Below are positions 2,566 to 34,071 of a stretch of DNA of 64,000 bases, one piece after another. The position numbers and the translations under genes are program-made. The notes under the pieces are model-generated. The model had not been told where the DNA came from. It ran no database searches and saw only the letters and a program-made list of their open reading frames with translations. Positions within the stretch are counted from its first letter, which is position 1; every line of letters starts with the position of its first letter. The DNA lies in NCBI GenBank assembly GCA_964358765.1, contig CAYHPN010000002.1, positions 62,863 through 126,862 on the forward strand, given 5' to 3'. This stretch comes from Candidatus Woesearchaeota archaeon (GTDB taxonomy: Archaea; Nanobdellota; Nanobdellia; Pacearchaeales; GW2011-AR1).

Positions 2566-3012
2566 TTACGCCTTCCTAAAGTTATTTGTTAGAAATTTCT
2601 CTTCATAAGCTATGTGCTCCTGGAATTTATCTAGAAACATTTTCCCATCTGTTTCTAAGGCAGTCTGTAATTCTAAATCTGATTTGTTCTTAATGTAACC
2701 TATAATAACTTTCCAATGCCCCCTTAGATTTTTATGATCTGTAATTATTGTTTTATGATATGGGAAGTCATTATCTAATGTTGAAATAGTTTTGAAAAAA
2801 TTCTCTTCTTTTTCTTCATGCTGTGACCAGAAAGACTCAAATTTTCTTAATAAAGCTAGTAAAGTTTGACGATTAATTTTATCTTTAATAGAAGATTCAA
2901 TCTCTTTAAGAAAGTTTTTTATGACAACATGCTCCTCTTTAATCACCTTAATCGGATGCATAACGTGGAATGATGAGTAAAGTATATAAAACTTATGAAT
3001 TTTTGTTTTCAA
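2566..3012 (-). CDS. hemerythrin-like (HHE cation-binding) protein; probable true start at 2961
   Basis: Repeated H/E-rich helices (EEHVVIK, WSQHEEKEE, DHKNLRGHW, QEHIAYEEKF). The first 17 codons overlap the RT stop, so the internal ATG at 2961 (MHPIKV...) is more plausible. Confidence 0.4.
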   Translation of the reverse strand: MKTKIHKFYILYSSFHVMHPIKVIKEEHVVIKNFLKEIESSIKDKINRQTLLALLRKFESFWSQHEEKEENFFKTISTLDNDFPYHKTIITDHKNLRGHWKVIIGYIKNKSDLELQTALETDGKMFLDKFQEHIAYEEKFLTNNFRKA

Positions 3013-4079
3013 ATCTGAGATTTCTTCATAATAATTTTTATTATTGAATGTTTAATTTGTTTTCTTAGTTTGTAAGTATTCGCCCATTTAGCATAAGCTT
3101 GCCAACCCTGTAAAGTTTCCGATAATCTCTTCAAAGTAATTTTATCATATTCGAATGATAAGATTTTATTTTGTATTTTTCTTATATTTCTTTTTCTTAA
3201 TAATTTGAAATGGTAAAAATTTCTAAAACCTACAAAATCAACTCCTTTTGATAAAGATATTGTCTTTGATTTATCTTGATGAAGCTGAATTTTTAGTTTT
3301 CCTTTAAGAAATTTGCCTATTTCTATTTTCCATTTTTCTAACTGCTCTATTGATTCATTTAGAATAACAAAATCATCTACATATCTAATATAATACTTAG
3401 ATCTTAAATTATGTTTAACAAAATAATCTAATTCGTTTAGATAGACGTTTGCGAAAAATTGAGAGGTTAAGTTTCCTAATGGCATTCCAATTTTTTTTTG
3501 CTTTTCATTTATTAATCCATTTTCTAAAATCTTTTTGATTAAAATAATTACTTTGTTGTCTTTTATTTTTTTGTTGATTATTTGAATGAGAATTTCTTGA
3601 TCTACTTCATTAAAATAATGCCTTATGTCTGCCTTTAAACAATAACCTTTAATTTGGTTATTAGTGAACTGCCCATTAATTTTTCCATTTTTAGATACTT
3701 TTCTTATAAATTTGTCAAATCTCTTTATTGGAAATAAAGTTCCCTTGCCTTTTCTGTTTGCACATGAATCATAAATAAAGGTTTTATCAAAAATTGGTTC
3801 TAGGATATTCACAATTGCGTGGTGAACAACTCTGTCTCTGAAATGTGATTTTGAAATAACTCTTGTTTTTGGATCTCTTAGGATAAATGTTTTAAGAGGC
3901 AAGGGTTTGTAAATCTCGCTTAACAATTCTTCTCTTAAAATTGTGAGATTTATTTCTAGATTTTTCTCAAATTCAAGAACATAATTTTTGAGAGTTTTTC
4001 CAATTCTGGCCTTTTTATATGCTAATTCTAAATTGCCTAGAGATATTATTTTTGAATATAGATTTTTGTAGGTTTTCAT
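3009..4079 (-). CDS. DGR-type reverse transcriptase
   Basis: Catalytic YVDD box (YIRYVDDFVIL). Motif 4 reads MPLGNLTSQFFANVYL, the LGxxxSQ signature of DGR RTs, rather than the group II QGxxxSP. The N-terminus MKTYKNLYSKIISLGNLELAYKKARIGK is typical. The track ORF extends to 4211 only because it reads through the TR. Confidence 0.85.
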   Translation of the reverse strand: MKTYKNLYSKIISLGNLELAYKKARIGKTLKNYVLEFEKNLEINLTILREELLSEIYKPLPLKTFILRDPKTRVISKSHFRDRVVHHAIVNILEPIFDKTFIYDSCANRKGKGTLFPIKRFDKFIRKVSKNGKINGQFTNNQIKGYCLKADIRHYFNEVDQEILIQIINKKIKDNKVIILIKKILENGLINEKQKKIGMPLGNLTSQFFANVYLNELDYFVKHNLRSKYYIRYVDDFVILNESIEQLEKWKIEIGKFLKGKLKIQLHQDKSKTISLSKGVDFVGFRNFYHFKLLRKRNIRKIQNKILSFEYDKITLKRLSETLQGWQAYAKWANTYKLRKQIKHSIIKIIMKKSQI

Positions 4080-4102
4080 TGAAGTAAAAGCCATAAGCTG
4101 AG

Positions 4103-4188
4103 CCATTCTACCATTGCCATTGGAGTTATCAAGATCGTCCCTATTGGAGTTAAGATTCAAGTTCCTGTTGAGGTAAACACCATGAAGG
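4103..4188 (-). repeat. DGR template repeat (TR)
   Basis: 86 bp, aligning without gaps to 4627-4712. The coding (minus) strand is rich in AAY codons (it would read YLNRNLNLNSNRDDLDNSNGNGRM). It lies 23 nt upstream of the RT start codon. Confidence 0.85.
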
Positions 4189-4280
4189 CAACTTCTTAGC
4201 CCATTAACCATTTATTTTTATCCTTAAGTTTATCTAATTATTTTGTTTTCTGTTTTAAGGACTCGACACCATCAAAACAT

Positions 4281-4317: not shown

Positions 4318-4588
4318 TTGGTAAACCAAATGCTTGATGTTTCAATTTTACTTTACTTAATGCGGTGATTGAATTTTACTGGCTTTGCAATGTCAAAAAA
4401 AAACAAAGCACTATTAATGGACGTGTGGCCCAGCCATTTTATATGGCTAGGAGTATTAGAATGAAAATCAAGTTTTTATTCTTTTCCTTTAATTATTTCT
4501 GATCCTATTTCTAAAGCTCTTTGATATCTTTCTCTAACCTCATCTAATTCTGCTTCTTGTTTTCTTTGCATTTCTGCAATATAACTGC

Positions 4589-5350
4589 CTAAGAATTTTT
4601 TTGCGTGGCCTGGCCACTAACAACCACCACCCTACCATCGCCATCGGAGTCATCAAGATCGACCCTATGGGAGCCAAGAACCAAGTACCCGCTGAGGAAA
4701 ACACCATTAAGGTCTGAATTACCTTTGTAATGATGTCTATTGCCTTGGCCTAAATTTTTAGGCAATCCTGTTTGTTCATCAATATCAGTAGAATTGAAAT
4801 TGCCTTCTTTATCTAATATAGGTGCATAAATTAAACTTGCGTTTTCTCCCAATTTAAATGATAATCCATGAGGAGAAGCTTGATCTGTTTGCAATTCTAG
4901 CCCAGCTAATGGAATCATTATTGGAGTTTTTATTTTTGGTTGTCTTTGTTTAACTTGATCATAAAGGACCTTAGCAAGATAAGAATTTGGTTTATCTGTG
5001 TTTCTTAAAACTAAAGCTGAATCTTCATAAGTTACATTCAATGACAATGCCTTTGTCTTAAGAATATTCTCTAAATCTGCAGGGGTTGCAACTCTTAATC
5101 CTTGCTCAGCAACAATTTGATTCATTAAAACTACTGCGAAAAGATTTGATCCGGTTACTTTTTCCCCATCGTAATTTAGAACATTTAATGCTTTATTTCC
5201 ACTATAATCTAATTTTACCCTCGCTTTATATTCTTCTAAAGCTCTTTTGCCGAAATCTCCGACTAGAAAATTCGCCTGTGAAATAAATCTTGGAACCTCA
5301 ATAAGAGGTTTTCCGACAAAATTTGGAAATGTTTTTGTTTCGCTTGCCAT
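4589..5350 (-). CDS. DGR variable (target) protein with a C-terminal VR
   Basis: 253 aa. The VR encodes FLSGYLVLGSHRVDLDDSDGDGRV near the C-terminus. The internal GLRVATPADLENIL resembles the (W/Y)RLPTxxELE motif of DUF1566 / FGE-type C-type-lectin-fold DGR targets. Confidence 0.75.
   Translation of the reverse strand: MASETKTFPNFVGKPLIEVPRFISQANFLVGDFGKRALEEYKARVKLDYSGNKALNVLNYDGEKVTGSNLFAVVLMNQIVAEQGLRVATPADLENILKTKALSLNVTYEDSALVLRNTDKPNSYLAKVLYDQVKQRQPKIKTPIMIPLAGLELQTDQASPHGLSFKLGENASLIYAPILDKEGNFNSTDIDEQTGLPKNLGQGNRHHYKGNSDLNGVFLSGYLVLGSHRVDLDDSDGDGRVVVVSGQATQKNS
4605..4617 (-). promoter_or_regulatory. GC-rich hairpin 9 nt downstream of the VR (candidate DGR target-recognition hairpin)
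   Basis: GTGGCCAGGCCAC on the minus strand, a near-perfect palindrome and the most GC-rich spot locally. Its position just 3' of the VR matches the hairpin/cruciform known from the Bordetella phage DGR. Confidence 0.5.
4627..4712 (-). repeat. DGR variable repeat (VR)
   Basis: 86 bp inside the last ~40 codons of ORF 4589-5350. It has 16 mismatches to the TR, 15 of them where the TR coding strand has A. Confidence 0.85.
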
Positions 5351-5504: not shown

Positions 5505-5759
5505 ATGGAAATAGAAGCAATAACAAGGAAATGGGGGAATTCAATCGCTGTAATTATTCCTAATGATTTTGTTATTAAAGAAGGCATTAGAGAAAATCAA
5601 GCAATTAAGATAGAGGTTAAGAAAAAGAAACCTAAAGCAGGGGTTTTATTTGGATTTGCAAAAGATTGGAAAAGACCAACCCAAGAAATAAAAGATGAAA
5701 TGAGACAAGGATGGATGAGTAAATCAGATAGGGAAGAAGAGAAAACGTGGAGGAAATAG
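5505..5759 (+). CDS. vapB: AbrB/MazE-fold antitoxin (VapB-like)
   Basis: RKWGNSIAVIIPNDFVIKEGI is a SpoVT/AbrB swapped-hairpin motif. The ORF overlaps the downstream PIN gene by 13 nt. Confidence 0.65.
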   Translation: MEIEAITRKWGNSIAVIIPNDFVIKEGIRENQAIKIEVKKKKPKAGVLFGFAKDWKRPTQEIKDEMRQGWMSKSDREEEKTWRK

Positions 5760-6121
5760 TTTATTTTTTTGATAGTTATGCAATAATTGAAATTTTAAAA
5801 GAAAATAAAAATTTCGAAAAATATGTGAACGAGACTGCGACAATAACGATTTTTAACTTGGCAGAAATATATTGGGCCGCACTTAGAGATTTTGATGAAG
5901 AGAAAGCTAATGAGATTTATGAACAATATAAAGAGGCAGTTGAAGAGATTGATGATGAAACTCTAAAAGAAGCAGTAAAATTTAGAAAAGAACATAAAAA
6001 ACAAGATTTGTCATATACTGATTGCATCGGTTATATTTATGCAAAAAGAAATGGAATGACATTTTTAACAGGAGATAAGGAATTTGAGCAAATGAAAAAT
6101 GTTGAATTTGTAAAAAAGTAA
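5747..6121 (+). CDS. vapC: PIN-domain toxin (VapC-like)
   Basis: Acidic PIN residues sit in FFDSYA, TDCIGY and LTGDKEF. The protein is 124 aa. Confidence 0.65.
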   Translation: MEEIVYFFDSYAIIEILKENKNFEKYVNETATITIFNLAEIYWAALRDFDEEKANEIYEQYKEAVEEIDDETLKEAVKFRKEHKKQDLSYTDCIGYIYAKRNGMTFLTGDKEFEQMKNVEFVKK

Positions 6122-24996: not shown

Positions 24997-25407
24997 TTAT
25001 TTATTTATCTTTGCCATTATTTCCTTAATTATCTTGCGTCTAACCTGTCTTCTTAATTTGTAAGTATTCGCCCATTTTGCATAAGCCTGCCAACCTTGCA
25101 AGAATTCTTTAAGTTTTCCTAGAGATATTTCATCTCTTTCAAACAATAAAATCTTATTTCTCATTTTTCTTATGTTTCTTTTTCTTAATAGTTTGAAATG
25201 ATAAAAATTTCTGAAGCCAACAAAATCAACTCCGCTTGACAGTGAAATTATTCTCGATTTATCTTGATGAAGCTCCAAACTTAATTTTTCTTTTAGAAAC
25301 TCGTTAATTTGATATTTCCAGTTATCCATATGTAGCAGTTCCATTAATATTTCCTTTAATTTTAGTAATATTGGTGCGTAAAATATAGATATTTTACGTA
25401 ATAACAA
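24997..25407 (-). pseudogene. C-terminal fragment of a second DGR-type reverse transcriptase
   Basis: LHQDKSRIISLSSGVDFVGFRNFYHFKLLRKRNIRKMRNKILLF...LQGWQAYAKWANTYKLRRQ is closely similar to the C-terminal ~115 aa of the RT at 3009-4079. The finger/palm region, including YVDD, is absent. Confidence 0.75.
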
Positions 25408-25442: not shown

Positions 25443-26717
25443 ATGATGGATTTAACTAGGATATTAAGGGACCAAAGACAGGAACTAGATTATAGTTTAA
25501 AGAAAAAAAAGATAATTGAAAGAGAAGCTGAGGAAATATTTAAAAATTTTCTAAATTCTAAACTAATAAAAATTATTAGCGGCATTAGAAGATCTGGGAA
25601 ATCAGTATTTATTTATCTGTTATTAAAAGATAAAAAATTTGCATATATGAATTTCGATGATGAAAGAATAATAAATGTTAATACAGATGATATTTTGTCT
25701 TCTTTTTATGAAATATATGGGAAAGATATTGAAAACATTTTTTTGGATGAAATTCAAAATTTGGACAATTGGCAATTATTTGTTAATAGATTACATAGAT
25801 CAGGATTTAATATTTTTATAACGGGAAGCAATTCAAAACTTTTAAGCAAAGAACTAGCAACCCACCTCACAGGAAGGCATCTAACTATGGAGTTATTTCC
25901 ATTTAGTTTTAGAGAATATCTCAGAGCAATGGAATTTAGAGAAAACAAAGATACTACAAAAGGTGAAAGCTTATTAAAAAGTGAATTAAAGAAGTATCTA
26001 GAAATTGGAGGTTTTCCAGAAATAGTTGTTGAAAGAGAAAATCCTGGAAATTACTTAAGAGAATTATATTCCAAGATTGTTGAAAGAGATATAATAAGCA
26101 GATATAAAATATCTTTTAAAAAAACATTCAAAGAGATTTCTTCTACTTTAATTAATAACCCTTCTAAACTTATAAGCTATAATAAAATTAAGAACAATTT
26201 TGGACTTGGAAGCGAACATACTGCAAAGAATTATATTTCCTATTTGGAAGAATCCTATTTAATATTTATATTGAACAGATTTTCATTTAAACCAGTTGAA
26301 ATAGAAAAAAGTGAGAAAAAAATATATGTTATAGATACTGGACTAATTAATAATATGTCTTTCAAATTAAGCGATAATTATGGGAGCATATATGAAAATG
26401 CTGTGGCAATAGAATTAATGAGATTAAAATCGTTTAATAAAAACATGGAAATTTATTATTGGAAAAATATATTGCATGAAGAGGTTGATTTTGCAATAAA
26501 GGAAAAATCTAGAGTTAAAGAGCTAATTCAAGTTTGTTATGACTTAAACAATTTTGATACAAAAGAAAGAGAGTTGAGATCTTTAATAAAAGCAAGTGAT
26601 GAATTAAAATGTGATAATCTTTTTATTATTACTGGAAACTATAAAAAGGAAGAAAAGATAAAAAATAAAATTATTAATTATATACCATTATATGAGTGGT
26701 TGTTGAAATCTCGATAA
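25443..26717 (+). CDS. AAA+ ATPase with a C-terminal DUF4143-like domain
   Basis: Walker A GIRRSGKS, Walker B IFLDEIQ and the conserved block ITGSNSKLLSKELATHLTGRH. Paralog of 29063-30307. Confidence 0.75.
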   Translation: MMDLTRILRDQRQELDYSLKKKKIIEREAEEIFKNFLNSKLIKIISGIRRSGKSVFIYLLLKDKKFAYMNFDDERIINVNTDDILSSFYEIYGKDIENIFLDEIQNLDNWQLFVNRLHRSGFNIFITGSNSKLLSKELATHLTGRHLTMELFPFSFREYLRAMEFRENKDTTKGESLLKSELKKYLEIGGFPEIVVERENPGNYLRELYSKIVERDIISRYKISFKKTFKEISSTLINNPSKLISYNKIKNNFGLGSEHTAKNYISYLEESYLIFILNRFSFKPVEIEKSEKKIYVIDTGLINNMSFKLSDNYGSIYENAVAIELMRLKSFNKNMEIYYWKNILHEEVDFAIKEKSRVKELIQVCYDLNNFDTKERELRSLIKASDELKCDNLFIITGNYKKEEKIKNKIINYIPLYEWLLKSR

Positions 26718-28968: not shown

Positions 28969-29062
28969 AGGTTTTGTAGGAAAAAATTAATCTTGAATTT
29001 GTTTGGAATTTTAATTATTTTGTAATACATAAATTTAAATACTTTTGTGCATCATAAACTAT

Positions 29063-30307
29063 ATGATTAAGGAGATTCTTATAGCTCAAAAACAAGAATT
29101 AGAGAAGAGGCTTAAAGAGATTTATATAGAAAGAACTGCAAATTTAAAAAAATTAGAGGCTCCATTAATAAAAGTTGTTATTGGACCTAGAAGAGCGGGA
29201 AAATCTTTTTTTGCACTAAATTTTCTAAATAAAAAAGGAAATTTTGGATATGTAAATTTTGATGATGAAAAATTAATGGATATTGAAAATTATGATGCTA
29301 TTTTAGAGGCTATGAACACTGTTTACAACGCGCCTAAATTTATTTTATTTGATGAAATTCAAAACTTGCCAAAATGGGAATTATTTATGAACAGATTACA
29401 TAGGCAAAACTTAAATATAATCGTAACTGGTAGCAATTCTAAATTATTAAGTAATGAACTTGCAACACATTTAACAGGAAGACATTTTTTAATAACCATT
29501 TTTCCTTTTTCTTTTAAAGAGTATTTAGAACTAGAAAAAAAAGAGTTAACTTTGAATCAAATAAAAGAAAAGCTTTACAAATATCTAATTTATGGAGGTT
29601 ATCCAGAACCTTTAATAAGAAATATAGATTATAAAGATTATTTGACATCTCTTCTTAGCTCAATTATATATAAAGATATTATAAAGAGATACAAGATAAG
29701 GTTTGCAGGAGGCATAGAAGACTTAACATATTATCTTATGTCAAATATTGCAAATGAGTATTCGTACAATAATCTAGCAAAGATGACAAAAATAAAAAGT
29801 GTTCATACAATTATTAAATATCTTGATTATCTTGAAGAAGCTTTTATTTTCTTTAGTTTGGGAAAATATTCGCATAAAGTTAAAGAGCAAATTACTTCAA
29901 ATAAAAAAATTTATTGCATTGACAATGGGTTTATTCAGGCAAAAACATTTAAATTATCTCCCGACATGGGCAAATTGTATGAAAATGTAGTTGCATTGGA
30001 ATTGAAGAAAAAAGAATTTAATAATGAGATAAAATTATTTTATTGGAAAAATCAACAACATGAAGAGGTTGATTTTGTAATTAAAGAAGGAATAAAAATA
30101 AAACAATTAATTCAAGTATGTTTTGATATTAAAAATTTAGAAACCAAAAATAGAGAGATACGGGCATTGATTAAAGCAGGAAAAGACCTAAAGTGCAATA
30201 ATCTATGGATAATAACAGAAGATAAGGAAGGCAAAGAAAAAACAGAATGGTTTGGAGATAAAGCAACAATAAATTATATTCCGCTTTGGAAATGGCTTTT
30301 GGATTGA
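29063..30307 (+). CDS. AAA+ ATPase with a DUF4143-like domain (paralog)
   Basis: GPRRAGKS, ILFDEIQ and VTGSNSKLLSNELATHLTGRH motifs. The ATG at 29063 is preferred over the TTG at 29045, by analogy with the paralog's N-terminus. Confidence 0.75.
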   Translation: MIKEILIAQKQELEKRLKEIYIERTANLKKLEAPLIKVVIGPRRAGKSFFALNFLNKKGNFGYVNFDDEKLMDIENYDAILEAMNTVYNAPKFILFDEIQNLPKWELFMNRLHRQNLNIIVTGSNSKLLSNELATHLTGRHFLITIFPFSFKEYLELEKKELTLNQIKEKLYKYLIYGGYPEPLIRNIDYKDYLTSLLSSIIYKDIIKRYKIRFAGGIEDLTYYLMSNIANEYSYNNLAKMTKIKSVHTIIKYLDYLEEAFIFFSLGKYSHKVKEQITSNKKIYCIDNGFIQAKTFKLSPDMGKLYENVVALELKKKEFNNEIKLFYWKNQQHEEVDFVIKEGIKIKQLIQVCFDIKNLETKNREIRALIKAGKDLKCNNLWIITEDKEGKEKTEWFGDKATINYIPLWKWLLD

Positions 30308-32122: not shown

Positions 32123-32425
32123 TTACAAAAGATATCCCTGCCTTTCAATTGCTACTCTTAAATCCTGATTTTCTGGTAACCATCTAAAGTTATACTCCTC
32201 TGTTTCTGAAAGCTGGAAATGATCTGTTTCAACTAAATCATTAAGATGCGTCCTATTTATTTTACAATCCTTATCAGTTGTTAAGTTGTGCGCTGAAAGA
32301 AAACCTTCTTTAATATTTAGTTCTCTTGCGTAATAAGCGTTATTGTCTGACTTTAATCTTAAAATCATGCCGTCAAAAATATGTCTTTGGTATTCTACTG
32401 CCGTGATTTTTCTTTTTTTTGTCAT
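32123..32425 (-). CDS. hypothetical protein
   Basis: 100 aa, with an ATGA overlap with the upstream ORF. Confidence 0.4.
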   Translation of the reverse strand: MTKKRKITAVEYQRHIFDGMILRLKSDNNAYYARELNIKEGFLSAHNLTTDKDCKINRTHLNDLVETDHFQLSETEEYNFRWLPENQDLRVAIERQGYLL

Positions 32426-33141
32426 TGCGTAAGTCCTTTATTTTCGGAGGGAAATTTTCCTATTAAGGGAAAGCAAAAATTATAGACTCCTTGAGTTCCT
32501 AATCCACTAACACAGTCCAAATCAAAAATTTCAAGAGCGAATACCCCATATTTATCTGAACTGTCCTTTTTAATAAGATGGACCCTCATGGCTGGGGTAT
32601 TTTTTACTAAACTAAATACTTTCTCGACATAATTTTTTAATAAATTTTCATCATTGACAACAAAACGCCAAACTGGATTATTTAATACACCAGATTCAGA
32701 AAAATCTCGCCCACATAAATCATCCCCGCGGACGTAAATTGTATTTGGACCTCTATCTCCCGGGAGTAGCCAGGAAATTTCTTGAGAAGGCATTCTTTTA
32801 AATTCATCTTTAGTAATGGGTATAGATCCTTGTGAGTAATCTGACCTACTGTAACCTAGCTTATGCCTTTGCAACTGCGTAAAATTCTTTTCAGGAATAT
32901 TTAATAAATAATCGGATCTAGGCAGTATTTTGAAAACAAAACTGTGGCCTACGTGGGCCAGTGCATCTCCCGTTGCATGCCTTCCCCACCAATTTACCCC
33001 TTCTTCTAAAACTCCTGGTTCAAATTCTAAGCGTTTCCGCATAATATCAGCTATACTAACCGGAACTCTTCCTTCTTCTAATAGGGACCTCATTGCCAAG
33101 TCATAATAATCATCAAATTCTTTGTACGTTGGTACTTTCAT
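32422..33141 (-). CDS. hypothetical protein, weakly related to the N-terminal domain of the DGR target
   Basis: 239 aa. GRVPVSIADIMRKRLE resembles GLRVATPADLENILK of ORF 4589-5350. Confidence 0.4.
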   Translation of the reverse strand: MKVPTYKEFDDYYDLAMRSLLEEGRVPVSIADIMRKRLEFEPGVLEEGVNWWGRHATGDALAHVGHSFVFKILPRSDYLLNIPEKNFTQLQRHKLGYSRSDYSQGSIPITKDEFKRMPSQEISWLLPGDRGPNTIYVRGDDLCGRDFSESGVLNNPVWRFVVNDENLLKNYVEKVFSLVKNTPAMRVHLIKKDSSDKYGVFALEIFDLDCVSGLGTQGVYNFCFPLIGKFPSENKGLTQ

Positions 33142-33213: not shown

Positions 33214-34071
33214 TTATTCATTTTCAATTACTCCAAACATATACCCTTCACTTGTATCTATGTGTCCGCTCGGAGGAGTTATATCCTTACCATCTATGTT
33301 TAAATTTCCATTAACTTCAAATCCATCATGTACGTCAGCACCAAAACCATGATTAGTAAAGCCAAGTGGATCGTTTGGTCCGCCAAATCTACGAGATCTT
33401 ATCCCGACAATCTTAGTAACCGGTTCATTAATCGTTTCGAATTTTGCAACACAAATGCCTTGTTTATAGTCCCAGTCAGAAGACATGATTTTTAACATTT
33501 CTGCAGTTTCATTTTTTGCTCCCTCTAATAATCTTGCTAAACCTCCACTAGCGAACTCCTTTGCACTTCCAAAATTGCCTGTTCGAAAAGAATCATATGG
33601 CACAAAACCAAAGCCTTTCTCCCCTAAATATACTCCGTGGAACTTCTCGCATTTATCTAATAATTTCTTCAATTTTTCTTCTGTTAATTTATTATTCGGG
33701 TCATCTGGAACATTCGCATAAATCCCCTCAGAGGAAATAGTTATTAACCCTAAATGGAGCCAGCTTCCTCTGCCAAGTGAATGACCATTATATCCTCCTT
33801 TGTCGAGAATCTCAGGCTTTGTCTTATTTTTTAAATCATAAGAGGCCAGGTAAAGAGACTCTATTGTGGAGGGAGTTCTAAATTTAATTTGTTCTCCCCC
33901 GAGATTAGTGTGAATTTGACGCATTGATGCAACATTTTTAAAAAAAGAGCCAGGCCCAAATGCATTAATGCATCCACAATAATTATTAGCTCCTGAGATA
34001 AATCTAATAAATCCAGGCAATACTTCTTGCGTAGTTATTTTCATAGTCTCATTTTGACTTTCTTTTGTCAT
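33214..34071 (-). CDS. hypothetical protein sharing local motifs with the DGR target protein
   Basis: 285 aa. RFISGANNY matches RFISQANFL and FRTPSTIESLYL matches VATPADLENILK in the DGR target. Confidence 0.45.
   Translation of the reverse strand: MTKESQNETMKITTQEVLPGFIRFISGANNYCGCINAFGPGSFFKNVASMRQIHTNLGGEQIKFRTPSTIESLYLASYDLKNKTKPEILDKGGYNGHSLGRGSWLHLGLITISSEGIYANVPDDPNNKLTEEKLKKLLDKCEKFHGVYLGEKGFGFVPYDSFRTGNFGSAKEFASGGLARLLEGAKNETAEMLKIMSSDWDYKQGICVAKFETINEPVTKIVGIRSRRFGGPNDPLGFTNHGFGADVHDGFEVNGNLNIDGKDITPPSGHIDTSEGYMFGVIENE

Follow-up and report, generated by a model that had tools for sequence, protein, structure and literature searches.

The retroelement and its variable protein

The window analysed here, a stretch of 64,000 nucleotides from a DPANN archaeal genome (assembly of 1.75 Mb, 87% complete), carries a diversity-generating retroelement (DGR), and our subject is the gene of its variable, or target, protein at positions 4589–5350 of the reverse strand. 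This open reading frame (ORF) encodes 253 amino acids with a predicted C-type-lectin (CLec) fold and belongs to a protein family designated A1. Its variable region (VR) occupies positions 4627–4712 (reverse strand; codons 215–241 of 253) and forms an 86-nt direct repeat, 81% identical, with the template repeat (TR) at 4103–4188 on the same strand. The two differ at 16 positions, 15 of which are TR adenines, and nearly all of these fall in codon positions 1 and 2; adenine mutagenesis of the VR did take place in the past. Fifteen codons of the TR bear adenines (eight of them are AAY) and alternate with adenine-free codons for Leu, Ser, Gly, and Val, and therefore every second residue is variable. 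This corresponds to a diversity of ~2.4e13 variants, with no stop codon within reach.

The last part of the VR is an invariant stretch resembling an initiation of mutagenic homing (IMH) element (approximately 4617–4636, reverse strand), which encodes strand beta5 (GRVVVV). Relatives show the same two TR/VR mismatches closest to the 3' end, where the TR reads AGAATGG and the VR AGGGTGG; these are therefore a fixed difference between IMH* and IMH and not the result of mutagenesis. Directly 3' of the VR follows a GC-rich hairpin with 5-bp stems and a 3-nt loop (4605–4617, reverse strand), a DGR target-recognition element. In 24 of 55 A1 gene copies the same site holds a GC-rich stem of 5 bp or more without mismatches, and the loop is mostly GAA; trinucleotide-loop hairpins have been described in nanoarchaeal DGRs (legend to Fig. 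3 in Paul et al., 2015, PMC4372165).

The reverse transcriptase (RT) gene is located at 3009–4079 on the reverse strand (RVT_1, E 1.2e-19) and encodes the YVDD motif. Its true start is likely Met45 of the 400-aa open frame at 3009–4211, the upstream part of which would be the TR read through, because the RTs of relatives align from that Met, 20–50 nt past the end of the TR. RTs that are 55–76% identical to the window RT adjoin TR/VR pairs in these relatives. No Avd-like ORF of at least 60 amino acids was found between target and RT, the sole small frame in this interval being the frameshifted tail of the target (see below); Avd is absent from some DGRs. Taken together, the target and its DGR are a real, well-formed, and ordinary representative of a known kind. 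Following the DGR literature, the RT would copy the TR transcript, erring at adenines, and the resulting cDNA would replace the VR, with the IMH-like stretch and the hairpin marking the site of replacement, i.e., mutagenic retrohoming as in the DGRs studied so far.

The translated ORF does contain the C-terminal end (...GDGRVVVVSGQATQKNS) and the motif at residues 84–97 (GLRVATPADLENIL) that were quoted in an initial annotation, made from the sequence alone, which had used the motif to propose a lectin-type fold, either CLec or like that of the formylglycine-generating enzyme (FGE), despite an unusual C-terminus. An AlphaFold (AF2) model of the target, built from an alignment of 42 A1 sequences, has a predicted local distance difference test (pLDDT) score of 90.2 (82–87 across the VR) and a predicted template modelling (pTM) score of 0.86. 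It places strands at residues 214–219 and 225–229 and a short strand followed by a helix at residues 84–97. The annotation had suggested structure prediction followed by Foldseek as a check, and the top rows of the Foldseek search of the Protein Data Bank (PDB) were indeed carbohydrate-recognition domains of lectins, with the DGR variable protein AvpA at rank 9 (E 0.13), none of them at E ≤ 0.001.

The model was also compared with 48,161 representative chains by VIA-align. Among the 50 matches listed, TaqVP, a DGR variable protein, scored 6.9 (164 residues aligned, root-mean-square deviation 4.1), many C-type lectin domains scored ~5–6, AvpA 5.8 (140 residues aligned), TvpA 5.2, and PvdO, EgtB, and pFGE 5.0–5.5. 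The neighbours thus include three solved DGR variable proteins. Judging by their titles, we take 46 of these 50 matches to be C-type lectin-like domains (CTLDs), FGE-type proteins, or DGR variable proteins; the other four (CarF, the C-terminal domain of Bd2740, PorKN, and CalU17) were not placed. For an independent Atlas model of the target (pTM 0.85), the named neighbours are FGE-sulfatase, Lectin_C, and a phage tail-fibre family. These models lead us to predict a CLec fold for the domain that holds the VR, in line with what the annotation had proposed. The VR would then encode the last beta-hairpin and loop of a single globular CLec domain and the invariant IMH its closing strand GRVVVV, and the alternating variable residues would lie on one face, forming the binding face, as suggested by the alternation and the secondary structure alone.

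We detected neither a signal peptide nor a membrane segment in the target protein. Its best 19-residue Kyte-Doolittle window reaches 1.26, so that no segment resembles a transmembrane helix, in agreement with the annotation. A value of 1.6 is reached by none of the 42 aligned A1 members and by only 4 of 263 A1-family proteins, three times within the conserved core and once in the long C-terminal extension of a 544-aa protein. No Pfam family was assigned to the target or to any of the 42 members, FGE-sulfatase and DUF1566 giving no match at E ≤ 1, and the A1 profile produced no match at E ≤ 10 against the PDB sequences, so that AvpA, too, goes unmatched by sequence.

The A1 family was initially described as small. 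It comprises 155 clusters of relatives at 90% identity and 549 at 50% identity with E ≤ 0.001 (119 of these at ≤ 1e-30), and where the source is named these are hypothetical proteins of Pace-, Woese-, Aenigm-, or Nanoarchaeota; A1 is a large, DPANN-wide, and unannotated family. A survey of contigs from one genome per species yielded 50 loci with a relative. At 17 of these the 4-kb flank contains a homologous RT, again arranged as target-TR-RT, and 12 loci hold more than one A1 copy. Among the relatives, 21/25, 23/25, 23/29, 21/24, and 19/20 TR/VR mismatches fall at TR adenines, while at other A1 loci the simple TR/VR scan was confused by tandem copies. The identification of the 253-aa protein as a DGR target is, therefore, backed by the RT, the adenine bias, and the hairpin as well as by a DGR layout that recurs throughout the family.

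In Nanoarchaeota archaeon SCGC AAA011-D5, one TR (locus L015) matches its own VR with 23 of 25 mismatches at adenines, and on the same contig it also matches two further VRs, one at a distance of 37 kb (20/22 at adenines) and one at 17 kb (23/27); these distant VRs are remote targets of a single DGR. A fourth A1 copy on another contig looks decayed (16/30; the four loci are L009, L015, L019, and L023). Since A1 copies with neither RT nor hairpin also exist, the family has both diversified and non-diversified members. In the assembly of the genome studied here, the A1 profile has two hits, the target itself (1.1e-113) and the TR read as protein (6.3e-4), and hence detects no non-diversified member of the family. 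A few A1 members occur on contigs titled “bacterium,” Bacillota, or Paceibacterota (L025, L030, and L034, the last one also with a DGR RT), which are probably mis-binned DPANN contigs. Wu et al. (2018) listed unclassified VR groups in DGRs of the candidate phyla radiation (CPR) and DPANN; six A1 motifs were not found in the text of their supplement, where line breaks could hide them, and Paul et al. (2017) may already describe the family.

One of the known systems closest to the target is AvpA of the Nanoarchaeota (PDB 5IOO; Handa et al., 2016, PMC5006420). Both are DPANN DGR targets of ~250 amino acids with one CLec-fold domain, a short VR (~27 codons; ~1e13 variants) near the C-terminus, an invariant IMH that encodes the closing strand, a hairpin directly after the VR and, in most relatives, a helical tail of 35–50 amino acids behind it. 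However, the two are not related in sequence by the profile search mentioned above, the three motifs that the same paper gives for the AvpA family are missing from the A1 consensus, the VR of the target lies ~35 residues further along, and the target model matches AvpA no better than it matches ordinary lectin domains. At the level of sequence A1 is, therefore, not recognisable as the AvpA family. From the FGE-subclass CLec proteins of bacteria and phages, i.e., TaqVP (PDB 5VF4), TvpA (2Y3C), and Mtd, the target differs in lacking an FGE-sulfatase or DUF1566 Pfam signal, in a VR about half as long, in the missing Avd gene, and in ending in G-R-V-V-V-V rather than in the G-F-R type that the annotation had named for such targets. 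The nanoarchaeal DUSEL4 DGRs (Paul et al., 2015; PMC4372165) share with the present case several DGRs per small genome, “orphan” targets that lack database relatives, trinucleotide-loop hairpins, and target genes with a VR but no nearby RT. They belong to another organism with apparently different target families, and, unlike there, two target-family genes here have lost, or never had, the cis elements of a VR.

Two neighbouring features may be recorded. The stop codon of the RT gene lies within a 4-nt overlap with a hemerythrin-domain ORF (2566–3012, reverse strand; Pfam E 4.9e-8), which is probably transcribed together with the RT. A pair of genes for a MazE-like antitoxin and a PIN-domain toxin (5505–6121, forward strand) directly precedes the target gene and is transcribed divergently from it.

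Other target families and their reverse transcriptases

Two further ORFs of the window, at 32–34 kb, had been interpreted as non-diversified paralogs of the target. The first (33214–34071, reverse strand) encodes a 285-aa protein that belongs to another DPANN family of DGR targets, A4 (E 7.8e-71). Four relatives were found in a large protein set, and of 401 genomes of the class 23 contain a match. The A4 proteins (23 sequences) end in a stretch rich in Gly, Asp, Asn, Ser, and Tyr, followed by a conserved A-F-G-V strand and a GAA-loop hairpin. Of 30 A4 loci, 8 (seven distinct places) have a homologous RT in their 1.5-kb flank, and TR/VR mismatches fall at TR adenines in 18/18, 13/13, and 16/17 cases, with 19/30 and 17/27 at two other loci.

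The second ORF (32422–33141, reverse strand) encodes a divergent protein of 239 amino acids with weak similarity to a third DPANN DGR-target family, A3. No relative was found in the large protein set; weak matches (18–25% identity, per-genome E 1.4e-5 to 0.01) occur in 19 other genomes of the 401, of which ~4 are expected by chance at the E threshold used. The A3 proteins end in a variable stretch and G-R-F-V-G-V, an RT is adjacent in 5 of 19 loci, and 14/14, 11/12, and 14/16 mismatches are at TR adenines. Pfam returned nothing relevant for the A3 and A4 families, and searches of the PDB sequences gave no matches with the A3 and A4 profiles and only chance-level RRM and SAM-lyase rows with the A2 profile.

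The same genome contains a second complete-looking DGR on another contig (C19; locus L114, 5648–7850), consisting of an A4-family target (E 8.5e-42) followed by a TR and a split RT whose two overlapping frames share 66% and 77% identity with the window RT. All 15 of its 15 mismatches are at TR adenines and its hairpin has a GAA loop. The A4 target of this element is linked to the protein encoded at 33214–34071 via the profile only (pairwise BLASTP E 4.2). In a tree of the first 135 RT residues from 30 loci (sequences that do not span residues 8–125 or contain stops, and one duplicate locus, were left out) the window RT is the sister of the C19 RT (support 99/97, 76% identity), yet their target families differ. 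When the target families are mapped on this tree, 8 changes are needed against a minimum of 3, and a mean of 11.8 when the labels are shuffled.

The GC-rich hairpin is not present at either of the two window ORFs. Remote targeting of these ORFs by the TRs of the window and C19 elements was considered and rejected; matches to their 3' ends amount to 34/86 and 32/86 (mean of shuffled controls 33, maximum 40) and 41/105 (mean 39, maximum 46).

A C-terminal remnant of a second DGR-type RT (~110 residues) is located at 24997–25407 on the reverse strand and is 69% identical to residues 288–397 of the window RT. It abuts an AAA_14/DUF4143 ATPase gene (25443–26717, forward strand); a second such ATPase gene is found at 29045–30307. 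The RT remnant shares the strand of the two ORFs and lies ~7 kb downstream of them, and so could be a leftover of their DGR. DGR-type RT pieces that run off the contig ends are also found on contigs C12 (L112, 9263–9904) and C35 (L113, 8715–9458), with 56% and 59% identity, respectively; the former is preceded by an Asn-rich open stretch resembling a TR of another type, and no target was found in its flank.

The idea of a local paralog family arose from short motifs, and these are present: RFISGANNY and FRTPSTIESLYL in the ORF at 33214–34071 and RVPVSIADIMRK in that at 32422–33141. Their recurrence does not, however, rise above chance. BLASTP among the three proteins gave a best E of 1.8–2.5 over all three pairs, and hhalign returned probabilities of 0.3% for the target family against each ORF, 0.4–0.5% against family alignments of 33214–34071, 0.7% against the family of 32422–33141, and at most 0.36% for A1 against 23 A4-type sequences under global and permissive local settings. 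Pairwise and profile alignment of the three proteins, the comparison that the annotation itself had put forward, thus yielded no significant match, which refutes the paralogy as it was claimed. The notion of non-diversified relatives of DGR targets was nevertheless right in kind, although by sequence these are relatives of other targets and not of this one.

The annotation's wider reading, in which the target and both ORFs descend from a common lectin-like ancestor and form one local family with a single diversified member, appears unlikely to us but deserves discussion. The three proteins are all ~240–285 aa, cytoplasmic-looking, and without a Pfam family; an R-x-[PA]-[TS]-x-x-[DE]-type motif occurs in the consensus of each family; and the families share a 3' module of VR, strand starting with G-R or F-G-V, GAA-loop hairpin, and A-run, and are served by one RT lineage. 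Moreover, hhalign found a weak match of A4 with A3 that is confined to the 3' module (E 0.0052, probability 6.9%), and, as a lead only, the nearest named Atlas clusters are the same for both proteins, one of them with Lcl_C in 27% of its members. Nevertheless, outside the VR module no significant pairwise or profile alignment is found, and the shared module may stem from the cis requirements of the RT and not from inheritance. Furthermore, the RFIS match sits where the 33214–34071 protein deviates from its own family consensus, and no usable fold prediction was obtained for the two ORFs. We, therefore, prefer to place them, as DGR-free representatives, in two other families that are diversified elsewhere by closely related RTs.

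The C-terminal tail and the state of the element

A helical C-terminal tail of 35–50 amino acids is in frame in 22 of the 42 aligned A1 members and naturally absent in the other 20. In the target, the reading frame departs from this conserved tail at an A7 homopolymer (4596–4602, reverse strand) and reaches its stop 8 codons past strand beta5. The remnant of the tail is still detectable out of frame at 4476–4601 (reverse strand; tail profile in the +2 frame, E 6.6e-6), and one extra A at the A7 run would restore it. With the same tail profile no frameshifted tails were found in other short A1 members, which leaves the window as the sole case among 55 copies. The A7 state is identical in contigs of three runs from two samples. 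Possible explanations are a frameshift of recent origin, an assembly error in the homopolymer, and expression that depends on slippage.

The frameshifted tail raises the question of whether the DGR is a fossil, i.e., a system that diversified its VR in the past and is now inoperative. Contigs from both samples carry one and the same VR sequence, the genome contains further broken RTs (the split RT on C19 and the remnant at 24997–25407), and, as noted, no Avd-like ORF of at least 60 aa separates target and RT. These observations would fit an inoperative system. Nevertheless, the RT frame is intact and includes YVDD, the TR, the IMH-like stretch, and the hairpin are intact as well, the tail is naturally missing in almost half of the aligned family members (20/42), and minor variants are invisible in contigs. 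On balance we doubt that the element is a fossil.

Weight of the evidence and biological meaning

We consider it very probable that the target is a DPANN-type DGR variable protein with a CLec fold and that the ORFs at 33214–34071 and 32422–33141 are DGR-free members of two other target families. Several points weigh against this. With respect to the fold, the Foldseek search of the PDB with the target model returned nothing at E ≤ 0.001 (best E 0.063, probability at most 0.28), no Pfam or PDB-sequence link connects the target to any CLec family, and the exposure of the variable residues is proposed from the alternation pattern and secondary structure only. For the two ORFs, the AF2 model of the 33214–34071 protein (from a 5-sequence alignment) is unusable, with a pLDDT of 34.9, and the assignment of 32422–33141 to A3 depends on weak similarity (18–25% identity, best E 1.4e-5), with the closing beta5 motif missing. 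The RT tree is poorly resolved, with 2 starred and 14 open branches among its 27 inner ones, and the three families may have a very remote common origin. Finally, the conserved tail of the target has been lost by a frameshift and, therefore, the locus could be decaying, while the contigs of the three runs (two samples of one study) show no difference within the VR and no sign of ongoing diversification, although contigs hide minor variants; the contigs of one run stop at the VR edge and are uninformative.

The lack of a significant Foldseek match and of a sequence link to any CLec family might be taken to mean that the target has a new fold and that its lectin matches reflect merely a common alpha/beta arrangement, but this is very improbable given the uniformity of the VIA-align matches (46 of the 50 listed being, by their titles, CTLD, FGE-type, or DGR variable proteins, three of the last kind included), the FGE-sulfatase and Lectin_C neighbours of a second, independent model, and the fact that the solved CLec DGR proteins are, according to PMC5006420, no more alike among themselves.

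A very probable assignment of the target to the DPANN-type CLec variable proteins has several consequences. A predicted fold and ~550 sequence clusters are now available for an unannotated DPANN family that is diversified by DGRs, and the C-type-lectin scaffold again appears to underlie an archaeal DGR target that sequence methods fail to classify. A tempting call of paralogy from short motifs is corrected at the same time. The variable face may serve ligand binding, the usual suggestion for such proteins being a part in contacts between symbiont and host or in conflict systems. Our results also point to a testable pattern, in which a single small genome combines several target families with one RT lineage and holds copies of such families that have no DGR. 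On a reading that we offer tentatively, and hold to be possible rather than probable, one DPANN RT lineage would serve at least three sequence-unrelated target families of ~250 aa whose sole common feature is a 3' module (VR, IMH-encoded closing strand, GAA-loop hairpin, and A-run). This module may have been grafted onto different scaffolds, or the families may represent one very old lectin-fold superfamily whose members have diverged too far to be recognised by sequence, and module-less copies such as those at 33214–34071 and 32422–33141 would be kept as former or potential targets.

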